A stretch of DNA of 64,000 nucleotides from Candidatus Gottesmanbacteria bacterium (GTDB taxonomy: Bacteria; Patescibacteriota; Microgenomatia; UBA10105; UBA927). Location of the stretch: positions 8,719 to 72,718 of the forward strand of contig JAUXTO010000025.1 in assembly GCA_030679255.1 (NCBI GenBank), given 5' to 3'. Below, piece after piece: positions 503 through 63,491 of the stretch. Numbering within the stretch: the first letter of the stretch is position 1; each line of letters begins with the position of its first letter. The position numbers were made by a program, and so were the translations under genes. The notes below the pieces were generated by a model. The model searched no databases, was not told the DNA's origin, and saw nothing but the letters and a program-made list of their open reading frames with translations.

Positions 503-507
503 AACTA

Positions 508-636
508 ATTTACAAATCTGCAAATGGCAAATCTGCAAATAAATGAGGAAATGTACAATGAATGATTAAATCATTTTCACAATTTACTCATTACGTCTTC
601 ATTTATTTGTAGATTCGCAGATTTGTATATTTGCAG
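508..636. promoter_or_regulatory. Iteron-like array of TTGCAGATTT-type motifs in inverted arrangement, in the dnaB upstream region
   Basis: aaatctgcaaat occurs twice on the left and ttgtagattc / gcagattt / ttgcagattt on the right. Five copies in total. Confidence 0.4.
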
Positions 637-639
637 ATT

Positions 640-1284
640 TCACTGGAGCACAACGACCTGCATCTCTTCCGGGAGTTTGTCGCGGGTGACAGAAAATTTG
701 GGCTGGGGAGAAACTTCTGTCTTACCCATCTCTTTAAGAAATGCGTCAACGCCGGAAAGCTCTGCAAACATTTTTTGATCTAAGCCAGGACGGTTATAAT
801 GCATGGGGATGACGATCGTGGGTTCGATCTCTCCAACGATTTTGGCGGCCACCGAAGCGTCAATCGTGTACACGCCCCCCACCGGGACGAGCAGGATATC
901 TACGCCATCCAGGCTATCCACATCTGCTGCCGTAAGTTCGTGGCCCAAGTCACCCAAATGGACGACGGACAATCCGTCTATTTCTATGCGATAGATGGTG
1001 TTTTTTCCCCTTTTCGCTCCCTTTTGATCATCGTGATAGACCCCGAGTCCCACCACGCCGACTCCTTTGATCTCATACTCGCCGGGGCCGGTGACAATAA
1101 ATGGATTACCTTCTACTAAACGCAATGCATTGTGGTCTTCATGTTGATGCGAAACGGTGACGATATCAGCCTCAACATGCTTCGGAAACGTGAGTCCGAT
1201 GTTGCTGCCATACGGATCCGTGACCACCGTCGCAGCTTTTCCGCGGAGCTTAAATGATGAATGTCCAAGATATGTTATGTCCAT
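640..1284 (-). CDS. Metal-dependent hydrolase of the MBL fold (UPF0173/YtkL-like)
   Basis: 214 aa, with HxHxDH-like SHQHEDH and a beta-lactamase-fold pattern (DPYG...HLGDLGH). Confidence 0.7.
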   Translation of the reverse strand: MDITYLGHSSFKLRGKAATVVTDPYGSNIGLTFPKHVEADIVTVSHQHEDHNALRLVEGNPFIVTGPGEYEIKGVGVVGLGVYHDDQKGAKRGKNTIYRIEIDGLSVVHLGDLGHELTAADVDSLDGVDILLVPVGGVYTIDASVAAKIVGEIEPTIVIPMHYNRPGLDQKMFAELSGVDAFLKEMGKTEVSPQPKFSVTRDKLPEEMQVVVLQ

Positions 1285-3644: not shown

Positions 3645-4014
3645 AGTATACTTGGTACCGGTACGTAAATTTTTTCCGCATCACTAATCGCGGCCAAATA
3701 TCTCTCTTGACATCATCATGGTAACATGTTAACATGCTATTATTCAATTAATTAATCATTCTACACTTCTCTGTAGGAGTGTAGAAATTTGTCTATGAAA
3801 CTTTTCAATCAATCAAATCAATTTTCTTACAACCAAGCCGCTTCCGACGCGGCTTCTTCCGCTCGCTCCCCCCGCCATCATACCTACTCCTAATCATCCC
3901 CCGCGCGTCGCGGAGTTCTGAAGTTTTTTTCCAATTTTCATTTATCATTCGTAGATTTACAGATTCGTAGATTCATCATTTCTTCATAACTCCCCCACTC
4001 GCAGGAACACTATT

Positions 4015-4086
4015 GGTGGCTGTAGCTCAAAAGTAGAGCATCCCGTTGTGGGCGGGAGTGAGCGGGAGCGTTACCCGTCAGTCACC
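4015..4086 (+). tRNA. tRNA-His-like element (anticodon GUG, with G-1), non-canonical D- and T-loops. Either a genuine tRNA-His or a tRNA mimic in the his-operon leader.
   Basis: Hand fold: G-1 then acceptor GGUGGCUG/CAGUCACC (one G-U pair), D-stem GCUC/GAGC, anticodon arm UCCCG-UUGUGGG-CGGGA with GUG at positions 34-36, T-stem GCGGG/CCCGU. The 5' half is near-identical to E. coli tRNA-His (GUGGCUAUAGCUCAG...). The D-loop lacks GG and the T-loop is AGCGUUA instead of TPsiC. It ends 14 nt before the hisG SD (taaggagg). Confidence 0.45.
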
Positions 4087-4100
4087 CTAAGGAGGAATTT

Positions 4101-4979
4101 ATGACAGCAATAAACAACAAAAATCTAAAATTAGCGATGCAAAAAGAGGGGCGGCTGACCGAAGAAACGCTTGAATTTTTGCGTAAATCCGGCCTGGAAT
4201 TTGAAAGCTACAACCAAAGGCTTTTCTCGACATGCAGAAATTTTCCATTAGAGATCCTCTACGTGCGAGATGATGACATACCAGACTATGTAGCCTCCGG
4301 AACGGTTGATCTGGGGATCCTCGGACAAAATATACTCTCTGAGGAGAGACCGAAGGTAAAAAAACTCCTCAATTTACGTTTTGGGTTTTGTACGCTTTTT
4401 ATTGCGGTCCCAAAGGAATCACAGATCAATAATCTCTCCGATCTCAATGGCAAAACCATCGCGACAACCTACCCTAACTCTACCCAAAATTTTCTTCTAA
4501 AGAATAAAGTTGAAGCAAAAATAGTAACAATAAGCGGATCTGTGGAAATCACCCCTGCCCTTGGCGTAGCCGATGCCATATCCGACCTTCTCTCTACCGG
4601 AAGCACCCTGGCTCTGAATGATTTGCGGCCACTGACTAAAGTCTACGACTCCGAAGCCATACTCATCGCAAATGAAGAAAGTGTCGCATCCAAAAATAAA
4701 ATGATGCTCCTTAATAATCTTCTGACGAGATTTAAAGGAGTACTCTCAGCAAAAAATTACAAATATATACTGATGAGCGCTCCCGAAGAAAAACTCACGA
4801 AAATTAAAAAAATGCTGCCATCTCTTATTTTCCCCACGCTCGCAACGATTTCAAAAAATGGTTTTACGACGCTTCAAACCGTTATAAAAGAAGATGTACT
4901 TTGGGACATAACAGGCAAACTCAAAGCCGCAGGTATATCGCAAATCTTCGTATTGCCGATAGAAAAAATTATTTCGTAA
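4101..4979 (+). CDS. hisG: ATP phosphoribosyltransferase, long form
   Basis: 292 aa with HisG motifs (LAMQKEGRL, DIPDYVASGTVDLGILGQN) and the C-terminal regulatory domain. A strong SD sits upstream. Confidence 0.9.
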   Translation: MTAINNKNLKLAMQKEGRLTEETLEFLRKSGLEFESYNQRLFSTCRNFPLEILYVRDDDIPDYVASGTVDLGILGQNILSEERPKVKKLLNLRFGFCTLFIAVPKESQINNLSDLNGKTIATTYPNSTQNFLLKNKVEAKIVTISGSVEITPALGVADAISDLLSTGSTLALNDLRPLTKVYDSEAILIANEESVASKNKMMLLNNLLTRFKGVLSAKNYKYILMSAPEEKLTKIKKMLPSLIFPTLATISKNGFTTLQTVIKEDVLWDITGKLKAAGISQIFVLPIEKIIS

Positions 4980-9798: not shown

Positions 9799-10115
9799 AG
9801 AATGTAACGATAGATTTTAGTAAAAGAAATGGATTGGTACCCGCTATTATTCAGGATTTTCAAAGCGGAGTTGTTTACATGCTCGGATATATGAATAAAG
9901 AAGCGTTCGAAAAAACAAAGGAAACCAGTTGGGTATATTTTTGGAGCAGAAGCAGAGAATGTTTATGGATGAAGGGAGAAGAATCAGGAAATAAACTAAG
10001 AGTAAAAGAGATTCTTATTGATTGTGATAACGATACAATTTTAGTAAAGATCAAATTGGATGGAAAAAACGCGTGTCACACAGGCAATATAACATGTTTT
10101 AATACGAAATTGTGA
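9795..10115 (+). CDS. hisI: Phosphoribosyl-AMP cyclohydrolase
   Basis: 106 aa with GLVPAIIQD and CHTG motifs. Confidence 0.85.
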
Positions 10116-10427: not shown

Positions 10428-11627
10428 ATGGACCTACTAAAAAATATAGACGCCCTTCTCATTACTAACCCGACGAATATCCGGTATCTCACTGGATTCG
10501 TCGGTGCGGCGCCGGAGGAGAGGGAAGCATACTGCTTGCTTACCAACTCTCAAACGTATCTCTTCATTAATGCGCTTTATACTGAATACGCAAATACACT
10601 TGTTTCACCATCTAAGCAAGGCAGTAATAATCCAATAATCCAATTCTCAAATAATCCAATAAAAATAGTCAAAATTTCCCGCGGGGAACCTTTTGCAAAA
10701 AAACTTGGTGATGTTCTGAAAAGGTCTCACCTTGCCAAACCGCAAGGTGAGACCTTAAAAGGAATTCGCCTCGGATTTGAAGAGAGCAACTTGACCGTCG
10801 CAGAATTCGAAAAATTAAAAAAAGAATTGCCCGGCATCACCCTTGTCCCAACACAAAACAGAATTGAAGAACTCCGGATGATCAAGCGCGATGATGAAAT
10901 CGAAAACATCCGACAGGCTGCAAAGATTACGGATCAGTGTTTTACCTATCTTACCACCATACTAAAACCTCGTGTTACTGAACTTGAAATCGCCTGGAAA
11001 ATCGAGTCCTTCATTCGCTCCCGCGGCGCGGGTCTTGCCTTCTCCCCCATCGTCGCGTTTGGCTCAAACACCTCGCAACCGCACTATTCACCAAAATCTA
11101 GCCTTAAAAGGTCTCACCTTTTAAGGCTAAAAAATCAAGATATTGTGCTACTGGATTTCGGCGCGAAGATTAACGGCTACTGCAGCGACATGACCCGCAT
11201 GGTGTTTATTGGCAAACCCGAGGCTGAATGGGTGAACGCTTACGAAACGGTTTCGAGAGCGCAAACCATGGCTCTCGAGTATCTAGCCTCAAGGCCTGGC
11301 CTTGAGGCTACGGGTGATAAAGTCGATCAGATCGCACGGGATATCATTGAAAATGCAGGGTTCCCTACCTATCCCCACTCTCTGGGTCACGGGGTGGGAT
11401 TGGATATTCATGAAGCACCACGATTGAGAACCAATCCTTCAATAAATTCAGAACAACCAGTTACATCCCGCGCTTCGCAAAGACTCATGCCCGGCATGGT
11501 CGTCACGGTTGAGCCAGGAATATATATCGAAGGACAGTATGGCGTACGCCTCGAGGATTTGATACTCTTGAAAGAAGACGGGATTGAATTACTATCAAAA
11601 TCAAATAAACATATCACTATACTTTAG
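10428..11627 (+). CDS. M24 family Xaa-Pro aminopeptidase carrying three in-frame palindromic-element insertions
   Basis: M24 motifs (DFGAKINGYCSDMTR, HSLGHGVGLDIHE, VEPGIY). Palindromic elements are embedded at 10717-10762, 11098-11130 and 11283-11310; one of them encodes KSSLKRSHLLRLKNQ. Confidence 0.8.
   Translation: MDLLKNIDALLITNPTNIRYLTGFVGAAPEEREAYCLLTNSQTYLFINALYTEYANTLVSPSKQGSNNPIIQFSNNPIKIVKISRGEPFAKKLGDVLKRSHLAKPQGETLKGIRLGFEESNLTVAEFEKLKKELPGITLVPTQNRIEELRMIKRDDEIENIRQAAKITDQCFTYLTTILKPRVTELEIAWKIESFIRSRGAGLAFSPIVAFGSNTSQPHYSPKSSLKRSHLLRLKNQDIVLLDFGAKINGYCSDMTRMVFIGKPEAEWVNAYETVSRAQTMALEYLASRPGLEATGDKVDQIARDIIENAGFPTYPHSLGHGVGLDIHEAPRLRTNPSINSEQPVTSRASQRLMPGMVVTVEPGIYIEGQYGVRLEDLILLKEDGIELLSKSNKHITIL
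10717..10762. repeat. REP-like family 1 derivative (extended palindrome around ggtctcacc / ggtgagacc)
   Basis: tgaaaaggtctcaccttg-ccaaaccg-caaggtgagaccttaaaagg. It lies inside pepP and is in frame. Confidence 0.7.
11098..11130. repeat. REP-like family 1 element
   Basis: ctagccttaaaagg-tctca-ccttttaaggctaa. In frame in pepP (SLKRSHLLRL). Confidence 0.8.
11283..11310. repeat. Family 1b palindrome (same outer arms, centre aaggcctggcctt)
   Basis: ctagcctcaaggcc-t-ggccttgaggcta. The same 13-bp core appears twice at 2587-2644. Confidence 0.7.
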
Positions 11628-12092: not shown

Positions 12093-13298
12093 ATGATCAC
12101 ACCACAAACACTCAAAGGATTTCGCGATTTCTTGCCGGCTGACGCGCTCAAGCGGCAATACGCCATCAACATCATTCGGCGTACATTCGAGTCTTTTGGA
12201 TTTGAGCCTCTGGAAACTCCCGCTCTTGAATACTTGGAAACATTTGCCGGCAATATCGGTGAGGATGAAAAATTATTTTTCAAATTTAAAGACCAGGGCG
12301 ACCGGGATGTGGCGCTTCGGTACGATCAAACGGTCCCGACCTGCCGTGTCATCGCCCAATATCCGGATAAAATATCCCTCCCTTTTAAACGCTATCAGAT
12401 CCAGACAGTTTGGCGGGCCGAAAAACCCCAGCGGGGACGCTTCCGTGAATTTTTGCAGTGCGACGCAGACATCTTCGGCGTTGACCACCGCGCGGCGGAC
12501 GGCGAAACGATTGCCCTCACGATCCAAATATTTAAAAATTTAGGGTTTAAAAATCCGACCGCCATCATCAATGACCGCGCGCTCTACCAAGGTGTCCCGT
12601 ATAAAGCAATTGTCGCGATAGATAAGCTTGCCAAAATCGGAGAAGACGGCGTTGTTGCCGAACTCATAAAAAAGGAATATACGGAAAAAGACGCAAGAAC
12701 ACTTTTAGATACCGTCAAAAACAGCAAACCCAACGACGCTCTCAAAACGATATTCGCGTTTCTTGATGCGTATGGCATGAAAGAACAGTATCGCTTTGAG
12801 CCCACGCTTGCCCGGTCGTTTAATTACTCGACCGGCACCATCTGGGAAATTGTCGATCCCGCCTTCACCGCCGGTTCCATGGCCGGATGCGAACGCTTTG
12901 ACAGTCTCGTCGGAAAATTCAGTAACCGAAACGTACCCGCTGTCGGGTTTGCCGTTGGATTTGACCGGACGATGGTCGCCATGGAAGAACTCGGGTTATT
13001 CCCCGCCGTCACGACGACCACCGCCGTCCTCGTTACAATTTTTTCGGAAAACTCGCTTGCCGCATCACAATCCATGACACAAACACTCCGCGGGGCCGGG
13101 ATTAACACGGATCTCTATCCGGATCCGAACACGAAACTCGAAAAACAACTCAAGTACGCCGATCGAAAAGGCATCCCGTATGTTGTAATTCAAGGGCCGG
13201 AGGAAGTCTCACGGGGCGTTGTAAAATTAAAAGACATGAAAGCCAAGACGCAAGTAGAAATGACGGTTGAAAAAATTATTCAAAAACTTAAATCTTAA
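12093..13298 (+). CDS. hisS: Histidyl-tRNA synthetase
   Basis: Class II motifs (GFRDFLP, RYDQTVP, RGRFREFLQCDADIFG) plus a C-terminal anticodon-binding domain. The anticodon-binding domain means it is not HisZ. Confidence 0.85.
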   Translation: MITPQTLKGFRDFLPADALKRQYAINIIRRTFESFGFEPLETPALEYLETFAGNIGEDEKLFFKFKDQGDRDVALRYDQTVPTCRVIAQYPDKISLPFKRYQIQTVWRAEKPQRGRFREFLQCDADIFGVDHRAADGETIALTIQIFKNLGFKNPTAIINDRALYQGVPYKAIVAIDKLAKIGEDGVVAELIKKEYTEKDARTLLDTVKNSKPNDALKTIFAFLDAYGMKEQYRFEPTLARSFNYSTGTIWEIVDPAFTAGSMAGCERFDSLVGKFSNRNVPAVGFAVGFDRTMVAMEELGLFPAVTTTTAVLVTIFSENSLAASQSMTQTLRGAGINTDLYPDPNTKLEKQLKYADRKGIPYVVIQGPEEVSRGVVKLKDMKAKTQVEMTVEKIIQKLKS

Positions 13299-13355
13299 TT
13301 TCATAAGGCCACCCCTTGCAAACGACAAGGGAGTGGCCTTGTAAGACTCCTGCCC

Positions 13356-14690: not shown

Positions 14691-15002
14691 ATGAAGTCAG
14701 ACATACACCCCAAATGGTACCCAACAGCCGTCGTCTCGTGCCAGTGTGGCAATACGTTTACCGTCGGGGCGTCCAAGCCCGAGATCAAAACCGATATCTG
14801 TGCCAAATGTCATCCGTTCTTCACCGGCGAGATGAAATTCGTCGATGCCTTGGGCAGGGTCGAACGCTTCCAGAATAAACAAAAAGTCGGAGCCGCTATG
14901 GCCAATGCTGTCGCGGATAAAAAGAAAAAGAAAAAAGACCACGAAGAAGCCGCCCGAAACGCCCCGAAATCCCTCAAAGAAATGTTGATGGGACTCAAAT
15001 AG
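14691..15002 (+). CDS. rpmE: Ribosomal protein L31 with a K-rich C-terminal extension
   Basis: MKSDIHPKWYPTAVVSCQCGNTF...CAKCHPFFTG is the L31 signature. The tail is ~35 aa longer than usual. Confidence 0.85.
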   Translation: MKSDIHPKWYPTAVVSCQCGNTFTVGASKPEIKTDICAKCHPFFTGEMKFVDALGRVERFQNKQKVGAAMANAVADKKKKKKDHEEAARNAPKSLKEMLMGLK

Positions 15003-15148
15003 CAATCCAATTAAATTCCAAGCATCAAGTACCAAGCATCAAACAAACGAATACAAATACCAATATACAAACAATTCTCGTTATTACCGTTTATTTTCAT
15101 TTGATGCTTTGATATTGTTTGGTACTTGAATATTGGAATTTGGTGCTT
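15003..15148. repeat. Family 3 long imperfect hairpin element (accaagcatcaa ... ttgatattgtttg ... ggtgctta)
   Basis: Inverted arms of about 45 nt share ccaagcatcaa / ttgatgctt and aattccaa / ttggaatt. It lies between rpmE and prfA. Confidence 0.7.
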
Positions 15149-15862
15149 ATGAATAATGATATCACGATTCTCGAACTCCGTCCCGGACCGGGTGGTGATG
15201 AAGCCAAGATATGGGCCGGCGATCTCATGCGCATGTACACGCGCTACGGGACTATCATGGGCTGGAAAGTAGAGAGCCTTGATGATTTAGTTATCCGCAT
15301 ACGGGGAACAGGCGTATTTACTAAACTCCAATATGAGGCCGGCACCCACCGCGTCCAACGAATCCCGTCTACAGAGCGCCATGGCCGGATCCATACCTCT
15401 ACGGCAACCGTTGCCGTCCTTCCCGAAATTCCGGAAAATGAAGTCACCATCCGCAACGACGACCTCGAGTGGGATTTTTTCCGCTCAGGGGGCAAAGGAG
15501 GACAAAACGTCAATAAGGTGAGTTCGGCCGTCCGACTTCGGCATAAACCCTCAGGCATCGTCGTGGCCTGCCAAACCGAGCGGGACCAATTTCAAAACCG
15601 CAGCGTAGCCCTCTCGATGCTGCGGGCCAAACTCTGGGAACGGGAACTCCTTGCCCGAGAGCAGACGATGACGGAGCAACGAAGTGTGATTGGTCGCGGC
15701 ATGCGCGCGGAAAAAATCCGCACCTATAATTATCCTCAAAACCGCGTCACCGACCACCGCATAAACAAATCCTGGCACAATCTGGAAGATGTTATGAGTG
15801 GAAAAATGCAAAAGATTTCCGAAGTGCTCTCTACTCTCCTTGATTCCCCAACGTCACCGTAA
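15149..15862 (+). CDS. prfA: Class-I peptide chain release factor (RF1-like, PST and GGQ motifs) lacking N-terminal domain 1
   Basis: It aligns to E. coli RF1 from about residue 105 onward. RIPSTERHGRIHTSTATVAVLPE carries the PxT-type motif and SGGKGGQNVNKV the GGQ. No N-terminal domain-1 coding sequence lies upstream. The 5' end abuts the hairpin element at 15003-15148. Confidence 0.75.
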   Translation: MNNDITILELRPGPGGDEAKIWAGDLMRMYTRYGTIMGWKVESLDDLVIRIRGTGVFTKLQYEAGTHRVQRIPSTERHGRIHTSTATVAVLPEIPENEVTIRNDDLEWDFFRSGGKGGQNVNKVSSAVRLRHKPSGIVVACQTERDQFQNRSVALSMLRAKLWERELLAREQTMTEQRSVIGRGMRAEKIRTYNYPQNRVTDHRINKSWHNLEDVMSGKMQKISEVLSTLLDSPTSP

Positions 15863-18330: not shown

Positions 18331-18331
18331 A

Positions 18332-18433
18332 AAAAATAAACGAATAATGGAATAATCTACTATACGAATAATAGAATAAAATTGCAATTCCTCATTATTC
18401 GCTTATTTCTTATTCGTTTATTCGCTTATTCAG
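18332..18433. repeat. AT-rich hairpin element (aaacgaataatggaataat ... attattcgtttattcgcttattc)
   Basis: Inverted repeat arms in the ctpA-rpsR intergenic region. Confidence 0.55.
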
Positions 18434-18434
18434 T

Positions 18435-18680: not shown

Positions 18681-18791
18681 ATAGTTGCGATACCAATCTA
18701 CGAATGCATACTAATGCAACGAATAAAATCTCACGCTCTTCTTTATTCGTATCATTGGCATCAATTCGTTGATTCGCATCGGATCTGTTCG

Positions 18792-19651: not shown

Positions 19652-20815
19652 TCAATTGCCAACTTTAAACTCCACCACATCCCCATCTTGCATCACATAT
19701 TCTTTTCCTTCACTGCGCACTTTTCCTGCCTCTCTCGCCCCTTTCCAACCTTTAAGCGCCACAAGGTCCGTATACGCGACGACATCGGCCTTGATAAACT
19801 TCTTTTCAAAATCCGTATGGATGACGCCGGCCGCCTGAGGAGCCTTCATCCCACGGGTAATCGTCCACGCGCGTGCCTCGATAGGTCCACAAGTTAAAAA
19901 AGAGATGAGACCAAGCATTTCGTATGCTTTGGCGATCAACCGGTCTAAGCCGGACGCTTCCAAACCCAATTCTTTGAGATACGCCTTTTGCTCATCTTCA
20001 GAGAGACTGGCCAACTCCGTCTCTACCTTGGCACTGATGCCTAGTATGTCATTCCGGCCATCCATGTCATTCCGGGCTTGACCCGGAATCCAGTCTTTTT
20101 TTTCGCTGGATCCCGGCCCGCTTCGACGTAGCGAGGCGAGCGCGGAGGCCGGGACGACAGAATCCGTTGTCAATTGTTGTTCGCTGACATTCGCCACGTA
20201 AAGAACGGGCTTCATAGTCAAAAGCTGCAAATCCCGAACGGCTTTCTGTTCTTCCGGTGGGAATTCGAGTGATGATGCTGGTTTACCGTTATTTAAGATC
20301 TGAAAAAGCCGTTCTAATAGTTCTGGTGGCAGTGCGCTACCATCCTTTTGCCGTTTCCCATTATCTTTTTGCCGTACTATCGTTTGCAAATCAGCCAATA
20401 TGAGTTCGGTCTCAATAATCCCGCGGTCCCGCTCAGGGTTGACGTCCCCGGCTACGTGGACGACGGAAGGATCATCAAAATAACGGATGACGTTGACGAC
20501 CAAGTCAACCTCACGGATATGAGAGAGAAATTTGTTCCCCAACCCTTCACCTTCTGAAGCACCTTTGACGAGTCCGGCAATATCCACAAATTGTACGGTC
20601 GCGTGGGTGAGCGGTGGCTTCACATGCTCTTCTCTCTCCACGAGCGTTGCTAGTGTTTCTAACCTTTTGTCCGGCACGGGAACCACACCGATATTTGGTT
20701 CTATCGTGGTAAACGGGTAATTTGCCGCCTCCGCGACCTGCTTTTTGAGGAGCGCATTAAACAGCGTACTTTTTCCAGCATTAGGAAGACCAACGATCCC
20801 TACTTTTAAATTCAT
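19652..20815 (-). CDS. ychF: Ribosome-binding ATPase YchF carrying an in-frame multi-hairpin element insertion
   Basis: [22 protein letters not shown]... with a TGS-like C-terminus. The insertion at 20048-20157 encodes ...SSEKKDWIPGQARNDMDG.... Confidence 0.85.
   Translation of the reverse strand: MNLKVGIVGLPNAGKSTLFNALLKKQVAEAANYPFTTIEPNIGVVPVPDKRLETLATLVEREEHVKPPLTHATVQFVDIAGLVKGASEGEGLGNKFLSHIREVDLVVNVIRYFDDPSVVHVAGDVNPERDRGIIETELILADLQTIVRQKDNGKRQKDGSALPPELLERLFQILNNGKPASSLEFPPEEQKAVRDLQLLTMKPVLYVANVSEQQLTTDSVVPASALASLRRSGPGSSEKKDWIPGQARNDMDGRNDILGISAKVETELASLSEDEQKAYLKELGLEASGLDRLIAKAYEMLGLISFLTCGPIEARAWTITRGMKAPQAAGVIHTDFEKKFIKADVVAYTDLVALKGWKGAREAGKVRSEGKEYVMQDGDVVEFKVGN
20048..20157. 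repeat. Family 2 multi-hairpin element (TIR gtcatYcc...gggaYgac), in frame in ychF
   Basis: gtcattccgggcttgacccggaatccag...ggatcccggcc...ggccgggacgac. It carries a partial internal duplication. Confidence 0.75.
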
Positions 20816-27885: not shown

Positions 27886-28311
27886 ATGGAGACAATGAAA
27901 AAGAAACCGGTAAATAATAGTTTTTTCATTTTTTTTGGCAGTGTCGCGTTCATCGTGACAGCGGTCGTCGCAACGGCAATCCTCAACCGCACGAGCACTA
28001 CTACAACCTCCCAGGATGTCCGTGCCCGGGCAAGTGTCACATCGCTCATGCGTCTGACGGCAATTGTCGAGTCTATCGATGAATCAAAAAGTTTGGTCAT
28101 CGTCAATGGATTACAGTTTATGGGAAGTACACCCGAGGGGCTGCAGAGCGTCGCAAGAAATACGGGAGGCCTTTGGACCGTAACGATTTCGGCAGGTGTC
28201 AATCTTGGTACACTTCGCCCCGGGTCCCGCGTAGAACTTCAAGTTAACCCGTCGTCGTTTAATATAGCACAGAAAAGTTTAACAGCTGCCGCCATTACTG
28301 TTTCGCGCTGA
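27886..28311 (+). CDS. Hypothetical membrane-anchored protein
   Basis: METMKKKPVNNSFFIFFGSVAFIVTAVVATAIL (TM) followed by a T-rich linker. The antisense ORF is less plausible. Confidence 0.45.
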   Translation: METMKKKPVNNSFFIFFGSVAFIVTAVVATAILNRTSTTTTSQDVRARASVTSLMRLTAIVESIDESKSLVIVNGLQFMGSTPEGLQSVARNTGGLWTVTISAGVNLGTLRPGSRVELQVNPSSFNIAQKSLTAAAITVSR

Positions 28312-29740
28312 TCCGTACTCCTTCCGGTGTATCTTCGATCATGTAGCCTTTCTCTTTAATTATTTTTCTCACCGCATCGGCATCTCCAAACTTTTTCTCC
28401 CGACGATATTCTTCACGCTGATCCGATAGATTTTGAATTTCTTCCGGAATTTTTTCCTGAGTCCTACGTCCTACATCCTGAGTCAATCTCAGTCCCAACG
28501 CTTCGTCAAAATCCAAAAGCAGATCATACTTATCGGTACTAGGAATATTGGACTTCGCGACTTCCCACGCGACGGCCAACGCTTGGGGCATATTAAGATC
28601 GTTCCCGAGCGCCTGATCAAACTTCTGTCGAAAACCATCCACCTTTTCCAATTTTTCATTTGATAATGTATTTCGATTGGAAATTGGAAATTGGAAATTG
28701 GACATTGCGGCGCGAAGCTCTCCTAATGCGTTCTGCGCGCCGGATAGCGCTTCCCACGTAAAATTCATAGGTTTTTTATAATGCGCAGTGAAATAAAAGT
28801 ATCGAAGTGCCAACGGATCAAATCCTTTGGCGATTACATCGTCAACCGATACGATGTTTGCCAAGGATTTACTCATTTTCGTGCCATCAATCATCAGGTG
28901 TCCGTGATGGATCCAGAACCGCACAAATTGTTTACCCGTCGCCCCTTCACTTTGTGCAATTTCATTGGGGTGATGGACGGCCATGTGTTCCGTGCCGCCG
29001 GTATGGATGTCGATTGTATCCCCCAGATACTTCATCGCCATCGCCGAACACTCAATATGCCACCCCGGGAATCCATCGCCTTTACCCTGACGTCCCGGAA
29101 TGGGAAACGGGCTCTCCCAGTGCATGACGTGATCCGCAAACCGGCCAACGCGTTTGAACCAAAGCACAAAATCCGCGGGATGCTTCTTTGCTTCGCCGGT
29201 GTTAATATCATCGCGTACCGCTACATTTTTCTCCTCAAGTTTTTGGCCAAATAATGAGCCGTATCCGGGAAACTTCGTCACGTCAAAGTACACCGCTTCC
29301 GGCGTATCGTAGGCGATGCCCTTTGCCAATAGTTTTTCGATGAGAGCAATCTGTTCAGGCACATGCTCAGTTGCCTTACATATTACGGTGGGGCGAAGAA
29401 TGCCCAGCTTATCCATCGAATCGTAAAAATTTTTGGTAAAAAACTCCGCTACCTCCCACACGGTCTTCCCTGTTTTCTTCGCTCCCTTTTCCAGCTTGTC
29501 CTCTCCCTCATCCGCGTCGCTTACCAAATGCCCTACATCCGTCACGTTTTGGACGTGGGTCACGTCATACCCGAACCGCGTGAGCACGCGACGTAGAATA
29601 TCATCACCCACATACTTTCTCCCGTGCCCGATATGAGTATAATCATAGACCGTCTGACCGCACGTATAGAACCCTACCTTTGGAGGGTGGAGAGGAACAA
29701 ATTCTTCAAGCTTTTTCGTAAGCGAGTTATAAAGTTTCAT
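28295..29740 (-). CDS. cysS: Cysteinyl-tRNA synthetase
   Basis: HIGH ([10 protein letters not shown]) and KMSKS motifs. A 7-bp tandem repeat x4 at 28676-28707 encodes [10 protein letters not shown]. Confidence 0.9.
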
Positions 29741-29800
29741 AATTATATTCTTGCTCCATTCTATCACGGAACGAACGAATCACCATCAACAATTGATGCA

Positions 29801-33945: not shown

Positions 33946-34248
33946 TCAAAATCCAAGTTGTGCCTTCGCTTCCTCCGTCATACGGTCCATACTCCACGGC
34001 GGCTCAAACGTAAGTTCTACTTCCACACGTTTGACGCCTTTCAATTTCCCAACCTCCTCGCGGATCGGGCCGGCAATCAAGTCAAAGAGCGGGCATCCGA
34101 TGGTCGTGAGCGTCATGAGAATCCGGATCGTGCCCACCTTTTTGTCTATCCCAATCTCATAAATGAGCCCCAGGTCCCAAAGCGACACCCCTATTTCTGG
34201 GTCCGGAATGGTCTTCAAAATTTTTTCTACTTGTTTTTGGGTAATCAT
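33946..34248 (-). CDS. DUF59/MIP18-family Fe-S cluster assembly protein (SufT-like)
   Basis: IPDPEIGVSLWDLGLIYEI...TLTTIGCPLFDLI...PPWS. Confidence 0.8.
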   Translation of the reverse strand: MITQKQVEKILKTIPDPEIGVSLWDLGLIYEIGIDKKVGTIRILMTLTTIGCPLFDLIAGPIREEVGKLKGVKRVEVELTFEPPWSMDRMTEEAKAQLGF

Positions 34249-34257
34249 ACAGAATAA

Positions 34258-34385
34258 GCACCAAGCATCAAATCACAAATTCCAAACAAATTCCAATATC
34301 AAAATTCTAAATTCTAAACGTTTTGAACATTGGTGCTTAAAACCTTGATATTGTTTGTAATTTGGTGCTTGTGATTTGGTGCTTA
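34258..34385. repeat. Family 3 long imperfect hairpin element, second copy
   Basis: gcaccaagcatcaaatcacaa...ttgatattgtttgtaatttggtgcttgtgatttggtgctt. It shares ttgatattgtttg exactly with the 15003 copy. Confidence 0.7.
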
Positions 34386-35036
34386 ATATTCCCTTCTCCC
34401 TTCCAACGCCCGAGACAAGGTAACTTCATCAGCATACTCGATATCCGCCCCGACCGGCAGACCACGGGCAAGCCGGGTAATATTGAGCTTGGCTGGTGGC
34501 TGACCCGCTTCGCCGGAGCTTGAGCGAGGCGAGTAGCTGATGGCTGAAAGCTGTTTTTGTAAATACATCGCCGTTGCTTCCCCTTCCATGTTCGGGTTCG
34601 TCGCAAGAATAATTTCCTTAATTCCTACGTCCTGAGTCCTCAGTCTTTTCAAAAGGTCCGCAATATAAATCTCGTCCGGTCCGATATTATTGAGTGGATC
34701 AAGCGATCCATGGAGGACATGATACAGGCCTTTATACTTTCCTGTTTTTTCAAACGCTAAGACATCCGTGGGCTGTTCAACAACACATATGATAGATGGA
34801 TCCCGCGTCGCATCGCTACAAATGCTACAAGGATCCGACTCCGCGACATTTTTGCATACTGAACACAAAACGGTGTTTAATCGAAGAGTCCGTAAGTTTT
34901 CCCCAAAACTCTCGAGCTCACTTTGCGGGACATGCAAAAGATAAAACGCAAGCCTCGTCGCCGACTTCGGCCCGATACCGGGCAGCTTTTGAAACGATTC
35001 GATGAGACGCGAGAGAGCTTTGGGTAGAAGTGCCAT
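34383..35036 (-). CDS. recR: Recombination protein RecR
   Basis: An HhH N-terminus (LPGIGPKSATRLAFYLL), a C4 zinc finger (CSVC...CSICSD) and a Toprim domain. Confidence 0.9.
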   Translation of the reverse strand: MALLPKALSRLIESFQKLPGIGPKSATRLAFYLLHVPQSELESFGENLRTLRLNTVLCSVCKNVAESDPCSICSDATRDPSIICVVEQPTDVLAFEKTGKYKGLYHVLHGSLDPLNNIGPDEIYIADLLKRLRTQDVGIKEIILATNPNMEGEATAMYLQKQLSAISYSPRSSSGEAGQPPAKLNITRLARGLPVGADIEYADEVTLSRALEGRREY

Positions 35037-49118: not shown

Positions 49119-50270
49119 TTATGAAAGGAATTGTGTGACAATTGCAAGTACTTCTTGTTTTTGTACTTCTGTAACCACCACTTCCACGATTCCCTCCTCG
49201 GGCCCGCCTGCAACGCTATGCGTACCCGTCTGCAGCGATGCAGCAGCTTCGGGCAGGGCATTGCGGGCAGGCTGACCATAATAAAGAATACTTCCCAATG
49301 GAGCGTATTGGATGACCGGTAGGACTAAGAGGTCTTCTTCGCCGTTCACGATGATGGCGTGATGCGTATCTCCTGGTCTTACTTTTCTGGCAAGCGCTGC
49401 TTGTATTGCCACCACGGCATCACGACTAATAAACCCCGGTCCACTATGCAAAAATTTAGCCTTAAAAGGTGAGACCTTTTGAGGCTGAAGTCTGTTTACT
49501 ATTTCCGGGAATGGTTTCCGGCCTACTTGGCCATCAATGACGGCCAAGCACGGCATGACGCCGAGATCCAACACGGTCTTCGTCGATAAATCCCCGACCG
49601 TTATGACGAAATCGTGTTCGTGTGACCGTATCGAGACGTCTATCGCTTTTCCACGGAGAATCTTCCCCATCGGCTTGCCGAGCGCGGCGCGCAGCCTCTC
49701 CGGCATGATGAGTCTCCCGTCCCCGTCAATCTCTCCCTTTCGCAGCCGTGTCGAAGAAATCGGCTTTCCATCCTCGGCCGGTACGATCGGCACTTCGATG
49801 AGCGCGAGCGGTGACAGGGCCAGGCCCTGTCTGAGACCATTGATACGCTCTCCGGTCGAACGGTTCTCATATGTGACAATGAGCGCAGTGAGATCCCTCA
49901 TGCTCGCCGCAGGTTCGTGAGGATCAGAGATCGGGATAATGGTCGTCCGATTGAAATATCGTCGCTTGTGCAACCATGCTATGAGATAGCATTTCCTTTC
50001 TTTATATGTGCTTATTTTTTTTTGAATTTGCACATTGGGATTTGTTTGGTCATTGGGATTTGGAAATTGGGATTTATACTTTACAACAAACTCGTCTGTT
50101 GTCAGCCCGATAGTCACCCGCTCGCCTACCCGAAATGCCTCAGATAGAATTGATCGGTGCCCCGCGTGGAGCCCGTCAAACGTCCCGGCGACGAAAATGT
50201 GGTGATATAAATAATCTTTTAGAAGTTTATTATTAAGGATAGTCACAGAGGAATAATACAATATGATCAC
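49119..50270 (-). CDS. Fusion: archaeal-type phosphopantetheine adenylyltransferase-like (HxGH) N-domain plus a DUF359/dephospho-CoA kinase-like C-domain
   Basis: The N-domain has FVAGTFDGLHAGHRSIL...IGLTTDEFV. The C-domain has VITVGDLSTKTVLDLGVMPCLAVIDGQVGRKPF. It hosts a 10-bp repeat block at 50032-50075 and a REP-like element at 49447-49478. Confidence 0.5.
   Translation of the reverse strand: MIILYYSSVTILNNKLLKDYLYHHIFVAGTFDGLHAGHRSILSEAFRVGERVTIGLTTDEFVVKYKSQFPNPNDQTNPNVQIQKKISTYKERKCYLIAWLHKRRYFNRTTIIPISDPHEPAASMRDLTALIVTYENRSTGERINGLRQGLALSPLALIEVPIVPAEDGKPISSTRLRKGEIDGDGRLIMPERLRAALGKPMGKILRGKAIDVSIRSHEHDFVITVGDLSTKTVLDLGVMPCLAVIDGQVGRKPFPEIVNRLQPQKVSPFKAKFLHSGPGFISRDAVVAIQAALARKVRPGDTHHAIIVNGEEDLLVLPVIQYAPLGSILYYGQPARNALPEAAASLQTGTHSVAGGPEEGIVEVVVTEVQKQEVLAIVTQFLS
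49447..49478. repeat. REP-like family 1 element
   Basis: ttagccttaaaaggtgagaccttttgaggct. In frame in the PPAT/DPCK-like gene (QPQKVSPFKA). Confidence 0.8.
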
Positions 50271-52473: not shown

Positions 52474-53635
52474 CCCCTTTTGGAATCCCCTGCCCGAGTA
52501 CGAGAAAATTGCGACCGAAGTGCATACGGCAATCGCCCGCGTCCTCTCCTCGGGCACGCTCATCCTGGGGCCGGAAGTCGCAGCGTTTGAAACATCCTTT
52601 GCGCAATACATTGGCTGCCGGTATGGTATTGGGGTGGGTAATGGGACGGATGCCATCATTCTCGCCCTCAAAGCGCTCGGAGTGGGTCAGGATGACGAAG
52701 TGATTACCGCCGCCAATACAGCTATCCCCACCGTCGCGGCAATCATGGCGGTTGGTGCAGTACCCAAGCTCGTTGACGTACTCCCTGATTCCCTGCTTAT
52801 GGATCCCGCCAAACTTCAAGGCGCCATTACAAAGCGTACCCGCGCAATAATCCCCGTCCATCTCTACGGACAATCGTGCGATATGGACACGATTATGAAG
52901 ATCGCAACATCCAAAAAGGTATTCGTCATCGAAGACTGCGCGCAGGCGACGGGGGCCGAGTATAAGTCAAAAGTCTCCGCCAAAGGCGGACCAGCCTATG
53001 GCCGGAAAAGTCGAAAGTCAAAAGTTGGTTCGATGGGGAGTATCGCAACATTTTCGTTTTATCCGACCAAAATCATCGGCTGCTACGGCGATGGGGGGAT
53101 GATTACGACCAATAATCCCGCTCTTGCCAAGCGGGTACGAAGTTTACGCATGTATGGCACCGAGGGAACGTACAACGCTATAATCGAAGGAGGAATTAAT
53201 TCACGACTCGATGAACTCCAGGCTGCCATCCTATCTGTCAAATTGAAAAACATCAAACGCTGGATCAAGGAGCGGCAACGTCTCGCCCATCGCTACAATC
53301 AGGGTCTCAAGAGTACACCACTTATTCTTCCGTCTCAGCCTCAAAAGGTCTCACCTTTTGAGGCTAATTCCCATGTTTTTCACCTCTATATCATCCGACA
53401 CACGAAACGCATAGAAATTCAAAAATATTTAAGAATGCACGGTATCGGCACGGCTATCCACTACCCGGTCCCCATCCACCTTATGCCCGCGTACAGCAAA
53501 TTAGGATACGAAAAAGGAGATTTTCCCGTCGCCGAAGGGGCGTGTCATTCTGTGCTTTCGCTTCCGCTCTATCCGGGGCTGACTGACGACGATCAGGATC
53601 GTATCATCAATGCGCTTCGCGCGTACTTCAAATAA
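52463..53635 (+). CDS. DegT/DnrJ/EryC1/StrS family sugar aminotransferase with an in-frame REP-like insertion
   Basis: IPFWNP...GNGTDAI...SFYPTKIIGCYGDGGMITT. The element at 53336-53367 encodes SQPQKVSPFEAN. Confidence 0.85.
   Translation: MKSIPFWNPLPEYEKIATEVHTAIARVLSSGTLILGPEVAAFETSFAQYIGCRYGIGVGNGTDAIILALKALGVGQDDEVITAANTAIPTVAAIMAVGAVPKLVDVLPDSLLMDPAKLQGAITKRTRAIIPVHLYGQSCDMDTIMKIATSKKVFVIEDCAQATGAEYKSKVSAKGGPAYGRKSRKSKVGSMGSIATFSFYPTKIIGCYGDGGMITTNNPALAKRVRSLRMYGTEGTYNAIIEGGINSRLDELQAAILSVKLKNIKRWIKERQRLAHRYNQGLKSTPLILPSQPQKVSPFEANSHVFHLYIIRHTKRIEIQKYLRMHGIGTAIHYPVPIHLMPAYSKLGYEKGDFPVAEGACHSVLSLPLYPGLTDDDQDRIINALRAYFK
53336..53367. repeat. REP-like family 1 element
   Basis: cagcctcaaaaggtctcaccttttgaggctaa is a perfect palindrome. 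In frame in the DegT gene. Confidence 0.8.
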
Positions 53636-55069: not shown

Positions 55070-55105
55070 CATAAATCTAGCCTTAAAAGGTCTCACCTTT
55101 TGAGG

Positions 55106-55843
55106 CTAATCTTCATCAATTTCTGCTTTTGCAATATACCGAATACTTTCAACTTCAAAATCATAATCCTGTATCTCGACAAACTCTTTATATGACTGTA
55201 ATCCCGTTTTCGCTTTAGAGAAATAAGAAAGAATTGTCTTTGGCTTCACCCACTCTTGATGAATCTCTCCCAGGTAATTGGGATACGATGACGGTTGTAA
55301 CCGCAATATTTGAGATCGCTTTTTTGGATCTAGCCTTAAAAGGTGAGACCTTTTGAGGCTAAACGGATTACGGTGGATATATCGGGATACATGAAGAAGC
55401 TGCGCGTCATTAGTAATCAAGACTGCCTTATACGTTCCTTGAAAGACAGACCCTACTCGCTTGTGCCGGCTGTTTTCATACATCGTAAACCGAGTCATCA
55501 CAGATTGTACAAATTCACTCATGTCTGACTCCCCTTTTTGCTGGAGAAGAAAATGGAAATGATTGGGCATCAGGCAATAGGCCAAAAGATCAATCTTACC
55601 AGTAAAATTCTTTAGTCGAAGCTCTCGTGCTGCTACCCCACGTTCTTTATAGGAAAGGGATTCCTCTGACGCCATCTCCCGAAGTTTTTTTTCATCTTTT
55701 GGACGTAATGCGGTTGCAATATAAGAAAGGAATACTCGATAATCCTGATCATCAATGAATATATCCGCTTTATTCACTCCTCGATTATAGACATGATACA
55801 CCCCATCAGAGACGTACGATTTGATGATATTTTTGGCAGGCAT
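55106..55843 (-). CDS. REP-associated tyrosine transposase (RAYT; IS200/IS605-like HuH Y1 transposase), with a REP copy inserted near the catalytic Tyr
   Basis: YHVYNRGVNKADIF, HuH MPNHFHFLL, and RYIHRNP (the Y motif). SLKRSHLLRL is inserted immediately after NPF, via the element at 55330-55362. Confidence 0.8.
   Translation of the reverse strand: MPAKNIIKSYVSDGVYHVYNRGVNKADIFIDDQDYRVFLSYIATALRPKDEKKLREMASEESLSYKERGVAARELRLKNFTGKIDLLAYCLMPNHFHFLLQQKGESDMSEFVQSVMTRFTMYENSRHKRVGSVFQGTYKAVLITNDAQLLHVSRYIHRNPFSLKRSHLLRLDPKKRSQILRLQPSSYPNYLGEIHQEWVKPKTILSYFSKAKTGLQSYKEFVEIQDYDFEVESIRYIAKAEIDED
55330..55362. repeat. REP-like family 1 element inside the RAYT gene
   Basis: ctagccttaaaaggtgagaccttttgaggctaa. 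Confidence 0.8.
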
Positions 55844-55906
55844 GCCATCAGTATGCGCGAAGTGATAAAAAAATACAATAGCCTTAAAAGGTGAGACCTT
55901 TTGAGG

Positions 55907-57031
55907 CTAAGTCTTCAAAACCTTCTGATAGACTTTTTCGTAACCCTCGACCATTTTCTCTACGGTAAAGTTTTCCTCGACATGCCTCCGGCAAGCGGCG
56001 CGGTCGATTTCTCCGATGCGTTTGACGGCTTCGACCAGCCCCTCTACCCCACGTTTTTTGATGACCCACTTCCCGTCTTTATTGGTAGTATTGGTAGTAT
56101 TTGTCTGATTTGTAGTATTGGTAGTATTATCATTTGGTTCTACGATAAACCCCGTCACTCCGTCCTTGACGATTTCAGAAACTGACCCCCGGTTGTAGGC
56201 GATGACCGGCGTCCCGCACGCCATGGCCTCAATCATCACGAGCCCAAACGGCTCTTCCCAGTGGATGGGGAATAGGAACGCTTTCGCATTACCTAAAAAA
56301 TCATACTTCAACGGACCAATCATTCGATCTAATAGACGAATCATCGCGCCATCAACTTCAGCGTTTATGCGTTTCAGATATGCTTCCTGGCCCTTTTCCT
56401 CAAAACCAACAAGCGTCAGCACGTCTCCAGTTTTTTTTGCCGTCATGATTGCATCAATTGCCCCTTTATTTTCCGAAAAACGTCCCATCCAGGCTACATA
56501 CGATGGTTTCTGTGGATGGAAAACAAATGGAACGTTTAAAGCGTCAATACCGTTGTAAACTACGCTCGAGAAATGGATGTAGGGCAACGCTCGTTTGGCG
56601 CCTTCGGATAATGCTATAAAAAATTCATGAGGAAATCGTTCGAATACTTTCTGTTCCCGCATCGCAAAATTAGCGCCGTGTGTGGTTGAAACGACGGGTG
56701 GACGAACCGCATGGATATAGGGTAATAATACGTGCTCTATATGACTATGTACGATATCAAACTGACCGAGCTCCGGAACTATTTTTTCTGCATACGCATG
56801 CTGAAGCGCAACACTTTCACGATCAAATAGTGATCGACCGGATTCTTTGAGCGATGGGCCACTAAAGCGCAGCAATACACGCGGAAACACTGACTTATCC
56901 GGAGCAAACACCGTAACCGTGTGGCCTCTCGCCTTGAGCCCCAAGGTGACATCCCGCACCACGGCTTTTATACCGATTGCCTTCTCAGAATCAAACGCAG
57001 ACCAATTGGGTAAAATTTGCGCAACGTTCAT
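55907..57031 (-). CDS. GT4 family glycosyltransferase
   Basis: EEPFGLVMIEAMACGTPVIAYNRGSVSEIV. An internal TNTTNQTNTTNTTN stretch comes from ttggtagtat repeats at 56081-56129. Confidence 0.85.
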   Translation of the reverse strand: MNVAQILPNWSAFDSEKAIGIKAVVRDVTLGLKARGHTVTVFAPDKSVFPRVLLRFSGPSLKESGRSLFDRESVALQHAYAEKIVPELGQFDIVHSHIEHVLLPYIHAVRPPVVSTTHGANFAMREQKVFERFPHEFFIALSEGAKRALPYIHFSSVVYNGIDALNVPFVFHPQKPSYVAWMGRFSENKGAIDAIMTAKKTGDVLTLVGFEEKGQEAYLKRINAEVDGAMIRLLDRMIGPLKYDFLGNAKAFLFPIHWEEPFGLVMIEAMACGTPVIAYNRGSVSEIVKDGVTGFIVEPNDNTTNTTNQTNTTNTTNKDGKWVIKKRGVEGLVEAVKRIGEIDRAACRRHVEENFTVEKMVEGYEKVYQKVLKT

Positions 57032-63430: not shown

Positions 63431-63491
63431 AGTAATTGTTCTGTTGGTAGTATTTGTAGTATTTGATTATTTGATGATTGGTAGTATTACT

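Follow-up and report, generated by a model that had tools for sequence, protein, structure and literature searches.

The spacer between rpmE and prfA in the window analysed here, a 64-kb stretch of a contig from Candidatus Gottesmanbacteria (CPR), is occupied from end to end by one long hairpin, copy 1 (Table 1). It begins directly after the rpmE stop codon TAG (15000-15002) and ends directly before the prfA ATG at 15149, where its 3' arm terminates in TTGGTGCTT; that ATG is not preceded by a Shine-Dalgarno motif. Copy 2 fills the spacer from recR to the DUF59/FeS_assembly_P gene, running from the recR stop codon TAA (34383-34385, minus strand), whose three bases are also the last three of the element, to 6 nt short of the DUF59 ATG (34248, minus strand). 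The termini of copy 2 are TAAGCACC...GGTGCTTA. The sequence-only reading had placed copy 1 over the 5' end of a truncated prfA. The element only abuts the gene, ATG 15149 being the start in all 32 homologues, and the whole clade has the short form of this release factor, which is not the product of an interruption by the hairpin.

Table 1. Hairpins of the window and the genes that border copies 1 and 2
Feature	Position	Strand	Remarks
rpmE (ribosomal protein L31)	14691..15002	+	PF01197; upstream of copy 1
Hairpin copy 1	15003..15148	.	whole rpmE-prfA spacer; fold, alignment, covariance model
Copy 1, 5' arm	~15010-15059		G-poor
Copy 1, loop	~15060-15091		
Copy 1, 3' arm	~15092-15144		C-poor
prfA-like class-I release factor without domain 1	15149..15862	+	downstream of copy 1
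DUF59 / FeS_assembly_P gene	33946..34248	-	Pfam; downstream neighbour of copy 2
Hairpin copy 2	~34249..34385	.	recR-to-DUF59 spacer, genes on minus strand
recR	34383..35036	-	Pfam; upstream neighbour of copy 2
Third hairpin	503..640	minus-strand genes	MBL-fold hydrolase gene/dnaB spacer; z -5.9
Fourth hairpin	18331..18434	minus-strand genes	rpsR/S41 peptidase spacer; z -5.35
Fifth hairpin	18681..18791	minus-strand genes	ssb/rpsR spacer; CGAAT words; z -4.4
Short G+C-rich stem-loop	13309-13346		~16 pairs, z -5.4; other kind of element

Copies 1 and 2 are real hairpins and they are homologous. They align over nearly their full length, plus strand to plus strand, with a local score of 42 compared with 14.6 +/- 3.0 for shuffled sequences (z 9.1), and none of 500 arm-wise shuffles reaches that score. 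The exact words ACCAAGCATCAAA, TTGATATTGTTTG and AATTTGGTGCTT are common to both, and the motif aattccaa is visible in each, so that the two related copies with shared words described by the sequence-only reading are indeed present and align end to end. A covariance model whose input was copy 2 and its two homologues from other genomes, and nothing else, recovers copy 1 with 41.6 bits and a rough E-value of 2.5e-5. Because the alignment is plus to plus and the bordering genes lie on opposite strands, the two copies are opposite in orientation relative to transcription. The long imperfect stem that had been predicted for each copy holds up in the folding check: copy 1 folds as a single long hairpin of -37.4 kcal/mol (z -5.5 to -5.8), and copy 2 likewise, at -36.5 kcal/mol on the plus strand (z -5.2) and -47.5 kcal/mol on the minus strand (z -7.2). 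Not one of 200 shuffles folds as well as either copy.

Additional hairpins were sought with a composition-corrected local-fold score over the window and 32 related loci, which was used in place of k-mer chaining and unfiltered local folding, both of which drowned in noise. Five AT-rich hairpins were detected in the window, with a G+C content of 0.22-0.37 compared with roughly 0.47 window-wide, and with fold z-scores between -4.4 and -7.2, and of -4.4 to -5.9 when folded on the sense strand; the proposal that the intergenic spacers hold a family of long imperfect hairpins therefore stands. In all five cases the hairpin occupies the whole stop-to-start spacer between co-directional genes, the foot of the stem lies no more than about 10 nt from the upstream stop and the downstream start, and no Shine-Dalgarno motif precedes the downstream start, whereas hisG, also in the window, is preceded by a strong one. 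The stems comprise 35-60 pairs, one arm being G-poor and the complementary arm C-poor. Short, degenerate words are arrayed along the arms, whose autocorrelation peaks at a lag of 7-8 nt (0.36-0.46 versus 0.33 +/- 0.02 in shuffles). The words themselves vary: the third hairpin has the same build with other words (ACAAATCTGCAAAT, with a period of about 8), and the fourth is composed of CGAATAA words with a period of 8. The fourth hairpin had been noticed earlier as an AT-rich hairpin at 18332-18433 and is real. The hairpin noticed at 13309-13346 exists as well and is a stem-loop of another kind, short and G+C-rich.

Could these structures be terminators or small RNAs, as the sequence-only reading had allowed? 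An intrinsic terminator does not fit stems of this length and AT-rich composition, which have no T-run behind them and lie between closely spaced genes of the same direction, and the terminator scan made no sense-strand call at the hairpins; its sole terminator-like call is a 6-bp antisense stem within the fifth hairpin. Independent small-RNA genes would account for stable structure, and we consider them very improbable, because the hairpins fill stop-to-start spacers within operons, no promoter or terminator frames them, and they are lost or replaced in close relatives. Nor do they correspond to a known small RNA: at gathering thresholds Rfam gives no match and no rRNA for the whole window, and at E<=1 the two copies match only plant miRNA-precursor hairpins, at 19-25 bits compared with gathering scores of 120-211.

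How stable are the hairpins in evolution? We compared 32 loci, retrieved by the prfA protein, from Candidatus Gottesmanbacteria and other Microgenomates genomes. The gene order of the window is conserved in these loci, and the corresponding junctions are empty, or hold a hairpin of other words, or hold similar arms around a gene for a PF05635 protein. The rpmE-prfA spacer ranges across the 32 genomes from -4 nt, a stop/start overlap, to 534 nt. The rpsR-peptidase spacer is 12 nt long in the closest relative (L001) and 6-11 nt in L003, L020, L021 and L025, and the same junction carries hairpins of differing, unrelated words in the window, L002, L007 and L017; the ssb-rpsR junction of L001 is only about 35 nt. 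Conversely, one element is found at different places. The L002 hairpin at its rpsR-peptidase junction (13157-13273) is 89% identical over 117 nt to copy 2, which lies between recR and DUF59 in the window, and a third homologue of copy 2 lies at the rpmE-prfA junction of L017, inverted relative to its genes. Since one site holds different elements and one element is found at different sites, evolution in place cannot by itself account for the hairpins. The third hairpin has an orthologous hairpin at the same site in L007, which shows that some copies persist. Palindromes are gained, lost and replaced rapidly at operon junctions among close relatives.

This turnover bears directly on the view that the hairpins are host regulatory structures evolved in place, which would tune how strongly adjacent genes are expressed relative to one another by ending or attenuating transcription between cistrons, by stabilising the mRNA or by marking where it is processed. 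Strong and specific folds lying exactly between cistrons, several of them in ribosomal-protein operons, would suit such a role, as would the conservation of the third hairpin in L007 and a weak preponderance of G.U (41) over A.C (22) among the sense-strand mismatches of empty hairpins. Against it, the closest relative lacks the hairpins at its short rpsR-peptidase and ssb-rpsR junctions, other relatives have overlapping stop and start codons, copies 1 and 2 are oppositely oriented relative to transcription, the same element is found at unrelated junctions, and the stems lack a T-run. We therefore regard host regulation as a rather unlikely explanation.

In L002, L007, L008, L026 and L029, the rpmE-prfA spacer consists of a G-poor arm, an open reading frame, and a complementary C-poor arm. 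The enclosed ORFs have 116-121 codons (L006 is truncated by its contig end) and match PF05635, the 23S rRNA intervening-sequence protein, with E-values of 2.6e-14 and 3.9e-11, and TIGR02436, four helix bundle protein, with 1.7e-20 and 2.1e-17. A profile made from the enclosed ORFs matches the five-chain PDB entry 2RLD, and PF05635 has been reported to be similar to Avd, a pentameric four-helix bundle that is an accessory protein of diversity-generating retroelements, DGRs (PMC10053308). A sixth PF05635 gene lies in L010 between hisS and an EamA gene, enclosed by complementary arms of CTAATT words. The outer arms of copy 1 align to the L002 arms, with paired changes, TTCCAA/TTGGAA in the window and TCCTAA/TTAGGA in L002. 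This pairing-preserving match indicates that copy 1 is the orthologue of a gene-carrying cassette, minus the gene. The 64-kb window itself contains no PF05635 gene, so that the link between hairpin and gene rests on comparison with other genomes. A possible remnant of the ORF in the copy 1 loop, a 16/19 match inside the L002 ORF, was discarded as too weak, the sequence being AC-rich.

To what extent is the association of PF05635 genes with such arms general? Metagenome contigs were scanned with an alignment of PF05635 proteins, which gave at least 575 relatives, and 80 loci were examined. In 81 loci that had enough flanking sequence, the 130-nt flanks on either side of the gene were assessed for pairing with each other against shuffled flanks. 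The PF05635 flanks pair at z<-3 in 46 of these loci and at z<-2 in 62. Reversal of the downstream flank, as a control, leaves only 2 loci at z<-3 and 5 at z<-2, and among other genes of the same loci the figures are 2 of 93 and 8 of 93. The flanking arms again consist of repeated words; in 73 of 92 arms the period that fits best is exactly 7 nt. PF05635 genes in general lie within heptad-repeat stems. Most of these cassettes sit between protein-coding genes; in 33 of 43 scorable loci the PF05635 gene has both neighbours on its own strand, and the median neighbour distances, 45 and 63 nt, imply that the arms fill the spacers. The covariance model also finds complete gene-less hairpins adjoining PF05635 genes, in L057, L070, L069 and L008, and in L057 there are two near-identical hairpin copies 2.6 kb apart.

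The window hairpins can be connected to this larger set by their words. Among the 9-mers of copy 1, 46% also occur in the arms of 80 independent PF05635 loci, and among those of copy 2, 65%, whereas shuffles give about 14% and at most 27%; the two copies are the top-scoring places of the whole window for shared 9-mers. Loci L115 and L083 contain AAGCACCAAAT and TTAGGATTT words, as in these two hairpins. A scan of viral contigs with CAAGCACCAAATNAC returned at least 119 single matches, essentially all attributable to chance, and only L191 resembles a small hairpin. For the third, fourth and fifth hairpins, 9-mer sharing with the sampled PF05635 arms is not above chance, although similar words are found in single loci, CGAAT words in L110 and CAAATG words in L073. 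On the basis of their architecture and of these similar words, the three further hairpins very probably belong to the same population, and their placement in the class is less secure than that of copies 1 and 2.

The best explanation of these observations is that the cassettes form a diverse population of AT-rich palindromes in Gottesmanbacteria and in many metagenomic contigs, and copies 1 and 2 are probably empty versions of a fast-turnover palindromic insertion that carries a PF05635 gene in related bacteria. In the reading that we favour and consider probable, they are gene-less palindromic cassettes resembling the intervening sequences (IVS) of rRNA, situated in operon junctions, co-transcribed with their neighbours, and probably selfish or tolerated. 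This identity as a gene-less, IVS-like cassette is fairly secure; the mechanism set out below is inferred. The finding is of more interest than a family of generic hairpins would be.

Among known systems, the 23S rRNA IVS of Salmonella, Leptospira, Coxiella and other bacteria comes closest. Intervening sequences of rRNA have been known since 1990, and their origin, their spread and the role of their ORF are unexplained (PMC4990558). The Coxiella 23S IVS is a selfish element with a stem of terminal inverted repeats that RNase III cuts, an S23p ORF in the loop and, adjoining the ORF, tandem heptameric repeats in variable number (PMC4990558). The hairpins described here share much of this plan. 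The element is closed by a long stem of terminal inverted repeats, both in the window hairpins and in the 46 strongly pairing PF05635 loci; the loop is either short or holds a PF05635 (S23p) ORF, as in the five rpmE-prfA cassettes and in L010; and heptameric repeats lie beside the ORF, as in Coxiella (PMC4990558). In the 32-genome comparison the elements occur sporadically among close relatives and at recurring sites, and they are more AT-rich than their host, as are IVS. Intervening sequences are regarded as selfish and are transcribed with the host RNA (PMC4990558). There are also clear differences. Unlike IVS, the window hairpins lie between protein-coding genes and not in rRNA helices, their arms are longer arrays of degenerate 7-8-nt words, excision by RNase III is suggested here by analogy only, and, unlike ORF-bearing IVS, the window copies have no ORF. 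Since every architectural feature compared agrees with IVS except the location in rRNA, we do not count the hairpins as strict members of the IVS family and see them as a variant of the same kind of element.

How might such an insertion be tolerated within an operon? The cassette has two complementary arms of about 40-60 nt, made of degenerate 7-8-nt words, and takes up exactly the space from the stop of one gene to the start of the following co-directional gene; in related genomes the same arms enclose a PF05635/TIGR02436 gene of about 120 codons. This is the IVS plan of ribosomal RNA, set in the junctions of messenger-RNA operons. The element is presumably co-transcribed with its neighbours, because it lies inside tight co-directional pairs, several of them in ribosomal-protein operons. 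In relatives free of the element, these junctions are overlapping or very short and lack a Shine-Dalgarno motif, and so the gene pairs look translationally coupled. Folding of the RNA would bring the upstream stop and the downstream start together at the base of the stem, and this apposition would keep a coupled pair working despite 100-150 inserted bases. Such a rejoining of stop and start by the stem could be the reason why only palindromes survive at such sites. A double-stranded stem of 35-60 bp is also a likely substrate for RNase III, by analogy with the IVS of rRNA. A simple signature search of the sequence examined returned no RNase III gene, a result that is uninformative either way. 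The element would be mainly selfish or neutral and not a dedicated regulator, and we judge it more likely that the empty hairpins originated by loss of the gene than as landing pads.

Selection on the sense-strand RNA was tested through the mismatches in the stems. On the sense strand there is no asymmetry in gene-carrying cassettes (94 G.U versus 90 A.C) and the weak asymmetry noted above in empty hairpins, and compensatory changes are found at 4 of 45 pairs in the alignment of three sequences, copy 2 and its homologues. With no clear G.U asymmetry and so few compensatory pairs, a DNA-level palindrome moved by some enzyme stays a live rival to the IVS-like reading. One form of it is that the hairpins are classical MITE or REP-like DNA elements, moved by a transposase encoded elsewhere, for example an enzyme of the IS200/IS605 or RAYT type acting on single-stranded hairpin DNA, with PF05635 as occasional cargo. 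The presence/absence differences among relatives, the occurrence of the same element at different junctions and the near-identical neighbouring copies in L057 are all of the kind that transposition would produce, and stems without a sense-strand G.U bias fit a palindrome maintained at the level of DNA. Terminal inverted repeats are also present, as the entire element is an imperfect palindrome. Within the 64 kb of this genome there are two related copies, clearly diverged from each other.

Other properties of the hairpins do not agree with transposition of this type. The termini of copy 2, TAAGCACC...GGTGCTTA, could include a TA target duplication, since the element ends TA/AGCACC...GGTGCT/TA (slashes mark the putative boundaries), but matching ends are absent from copy 1, L002 and L017, so that neither termini nor target-site duplication are consistent across copies, and comparison of the empty L001 site with the filled window site discloses no clear target duplication. 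PF05635 is the sole gene found repeatedly inside the arms, its flanks pairing far more often than those of control genes. No autonomous relative encoding a transposase was found, the gene-carrying counterparts encoding PF05635 only, and no transposase was noticed beside any copy on casual inspection. The arm words are wholly different from one element to another, a variation incompatible with a transposase that is specific for sequence. Since the partner gene is PF05635 and not a transposase, and no target-site duplication can be defined, these are not classical MITEs, and we judge movement by a transposase encoded elsewhere to be unlikely. The MITE family was nevertheless the nearest of the options in the sequence-only reading: turnover, swapping between sites and a gene-carrying counterpart are all observed.

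Several families of small palindromic elements invite comparison. The hairpins resemble MITEs and REP/BIME sequences in being small, non-coding, palindromic and multi-copy, in their presence/absence variation and in having a larger, gene-carrying relative, and differ from them in having no known transposase or RAYT partner. REP/BIME elements, which are G+C-rich, 20-40 nt long and conserved in sequence, were set aside on size and composition, the hairpins being AT-rich palindromes of 100-150 bp whose termini are not conserved. The ERIC/IRU elements of enterobacteria and the Correia/NEMIS elements of Neisseria are imperfect palindromes of 100-150 bp in transcribed intergenic regions that fold in mRNA. 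RNase III cleaves Correia elements, and ERIC and Correia elements can both alter mRNA stability. Both families have conserved sequences, and Correia elements have defined terminal repeats and a TA duplication. The window hairpins are likewise palindromes of 100-150 bp, in spacers that are presumably transcribed. Unlike ERIC and Correia elements, their words vary from element to element, they show no evident target duplication, and their gene-carrying counterpart encodes PF05635. A resemblance to DGRs lies in the reported similarity of PF05635 to Avd (PMC10053308), but, unlike in DGRs, no reverse transcriptase and no template/variable repeat pair was noticed on casual inspection beside the cassettes.

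What might the PF05635 protein do within its cassette? One suggestion, which is compatible with the IVS-like reading of the empty hairpins, is that the arms are binding arrays for a pentameric PF05635 protein, possibly encoded elsewhere, and that the empty hairpins are functional docking sites for it and not relics. The 7-nt periodicity of the arms adjoining PF05635 genes, the five chains of 2RLD, the reported similarity to Avd (PMC10053308) and the complete extra hairpins beside PF05635 genes in L057, L069, L070 and L008 would agree with this. However, the words differ widely among cassettes despite conserved proteins, the window has no PF05635 gene, and the binding is purely hypothetical. 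We think it quite improbable that the empty hairpins are docking sites.

A more far-reaching proposal, which we put forward tentatively as a possibility that is more doubtful than not, is that the PF05635 gene and its heptad-repeat arms constitute a self-propagating element, that the empty hairpins are its non-autonomous derivatives, and that the IVS of rRNA are the subset that landed in rRNA. A pentameric PF05635 protein would recognise the repeat arms, as RNA or as single-stranded DNA, and might promote maintenance of the cassette or its copying into stop-to-start junctions. If this were true, a function would have been found for PF05635/TIGR02436, a large orphan family, and bacterial mobile elements would gain a new class that has no recognisable transposase.

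This locus and its relatives indicate that the stem-plus-ORF architecture with PF05635 and heptameric repeats is common at the junctions of ordinary genes, that gene-carrying and gene-less forms share a site, and that elements are swapped between sites. In the searchable literature, which leaves most subscription journals uncovered, there is no description of PF05635 cassettes with heptad-repeat arms outside rRNA, of their gene-less forms, or of such cassettes in CPR genomes. The origin and spread of IVS can now be tested by means of hundreds of cassettes and of the filled and empty sites that sister genomes provide naturally, and a concrete prediction is that the repeat arms are bound by the PF05635 protein of the same cassette and the stems cut by RNase III. 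For the annotation of CPR genomes, the elements would account for many unusual spacers rich in AT and for start codons that were misplaced, such as the TTG at 15119. We suspect that some of the repeat arrays reported by CRISPR-type finders beside "23S rRNA IVP" genes have the same cause.

PF05635 cassettes, in which complementary word-array arms surround a PF05635/TIGR02436 gene (23S rRNA intervening-sequence protein), occur on other contigs together with gene-less hairpins. At L057, on a single metagenomic contig, the PF05635 gene is preceded by an AC-rich arm and directly followed by a complete hairpin without a gene, and another hairpin of nearly identical sequence is found 2.6 kb off; either of the AC arms could serve as pairing partner for the downstream GT arm, which would allow alternative structures. 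At the hisS-EamA junction, the window (13299-13355) has a stem-loop of ~16 pairs that is rich in G+C, and the compared locus L010 (4380-4860) has a full PF05635 cassette.

Two window spacers, 49980-50075 and 63431-63491, whose flanking genes are co-directional on the minus strand, each consist of a single word array that lacks a complementary partner. Read on the sense strand, the arrays run ATCCCAATTTCCAAATCCCAAT... and AATACTACCAA..., respectively, and 46% of the 9-mers of the 49986 region are also found in the arms of PF05635 loci. These single arrays may be half-cassettes. A different cargo-in-palindrome arrangement may be represented by L049 (540-1420), where a 197-codon ORF (681-1274) has a local palindrome on either side, both sharing the core ATAAACGGCCGTTTAT; this ORF was the sole strong outlier among the 93 control genes of the flank-pairing test (z -9.5).

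The window also contains six near-perfect 31-nt palindromes, TAGCCTTAAAAGGTCTCACCTTTTAAGGCTA, which form a family distinct from the AT-rich hairpins of the spacers and are without kinship to them. They occur with two loop variants, GTCTCAC and GTGAGAC, the mutual complementarity of the six copies is 87-97%, and they look REP-like. A further, terminator-like repeat family is made up of TGTCATYCCGGGCTTGACCCGGRATCCA followed by a T-run, with 70-90% identity among copies. Upstream of hisG (3796-4101), a 32-codon ORF is followed in order by a stem with a T-run, a GT-word tract and a tRNA-His call; because Rfam reported no tRNA at its gathering score, the call may be divergent or false.

Coordinates of release factor, repeat and word-tract features (window positions, except for L057)
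Feature	Position	Remarks
32-codon ORF upstream of hisG	first feature within 3796-4101	MKLFNQ...SPRHHTYS
Terminator-like stem with T-run, upstream of hisG	3893-3930	
GT-word tract, upstream of hisG	3940-3975	
tRNA-His	4016-4087	ARAGORN call; ends 14 nt before hisG ATG
In-frame word tracts	10626-10665, 10720-10765	within ORF 10428-11627
31-nt palindromes TAGCCTTAAAAGGTCTCACCTTTTAAGGCTA	11099-11129, 49456-49488, 53335-53367, 55078-55108, 55331-55361, 55879-55909	
prfA-like release factor	15149-15862	237 residues, without domain 1
TGTCATYCCGGGCTTGACCCGGRATCCA + T-run repeats	20065-20104, 62668-62707, 63846-63885	
In-frame word tract	28660-28700	within ORF 28295-29767, minus strand
In-frame word tract	63303-63342	within ORF 62450-63430, minus strand
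L057 features	214-359, 2440-2486, 2870-2995	one metagenomic contig

The prfA-like protein possesses the PST tripeptide and the GGQ motif, and is covered by the Pfam PCRF model only from profile position 102 on. As the same start residue is found in 32/32 Gottesmanbacteria homologues, the short form is common to the clade. Immediately 5' of the true prfA start, the compared loci L017 (~9880-10000) and L031 (~2490-2634) carry a duplicated 5' fragment of the gene, comprising the ATG and ~19 codons and closing in a stop, after which comes a ~70-85-nt insert with the conserved core GGTTGCTTA...GCAACCATCGATGCCGAAG.

Short-period word tracts are also present in frame within long ORFs of the window, for example AATAATCCAAT repeated three times and translated as NNPIIQFSNNPIK; the rpmE-prfA spacer of another compared locus, L025, is a AATAATCCAAT tract over its entire length. 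A copy of the AAAAGGTCTCACC palindrome, translated as LKRSHLAKPQGETLKG, likewise lies in frame in the aminopeptidase-like ORF. These in-frame tracts and the palindrome are reminiscent of the Rickettsia palindromic elements, which are similarly in frame.
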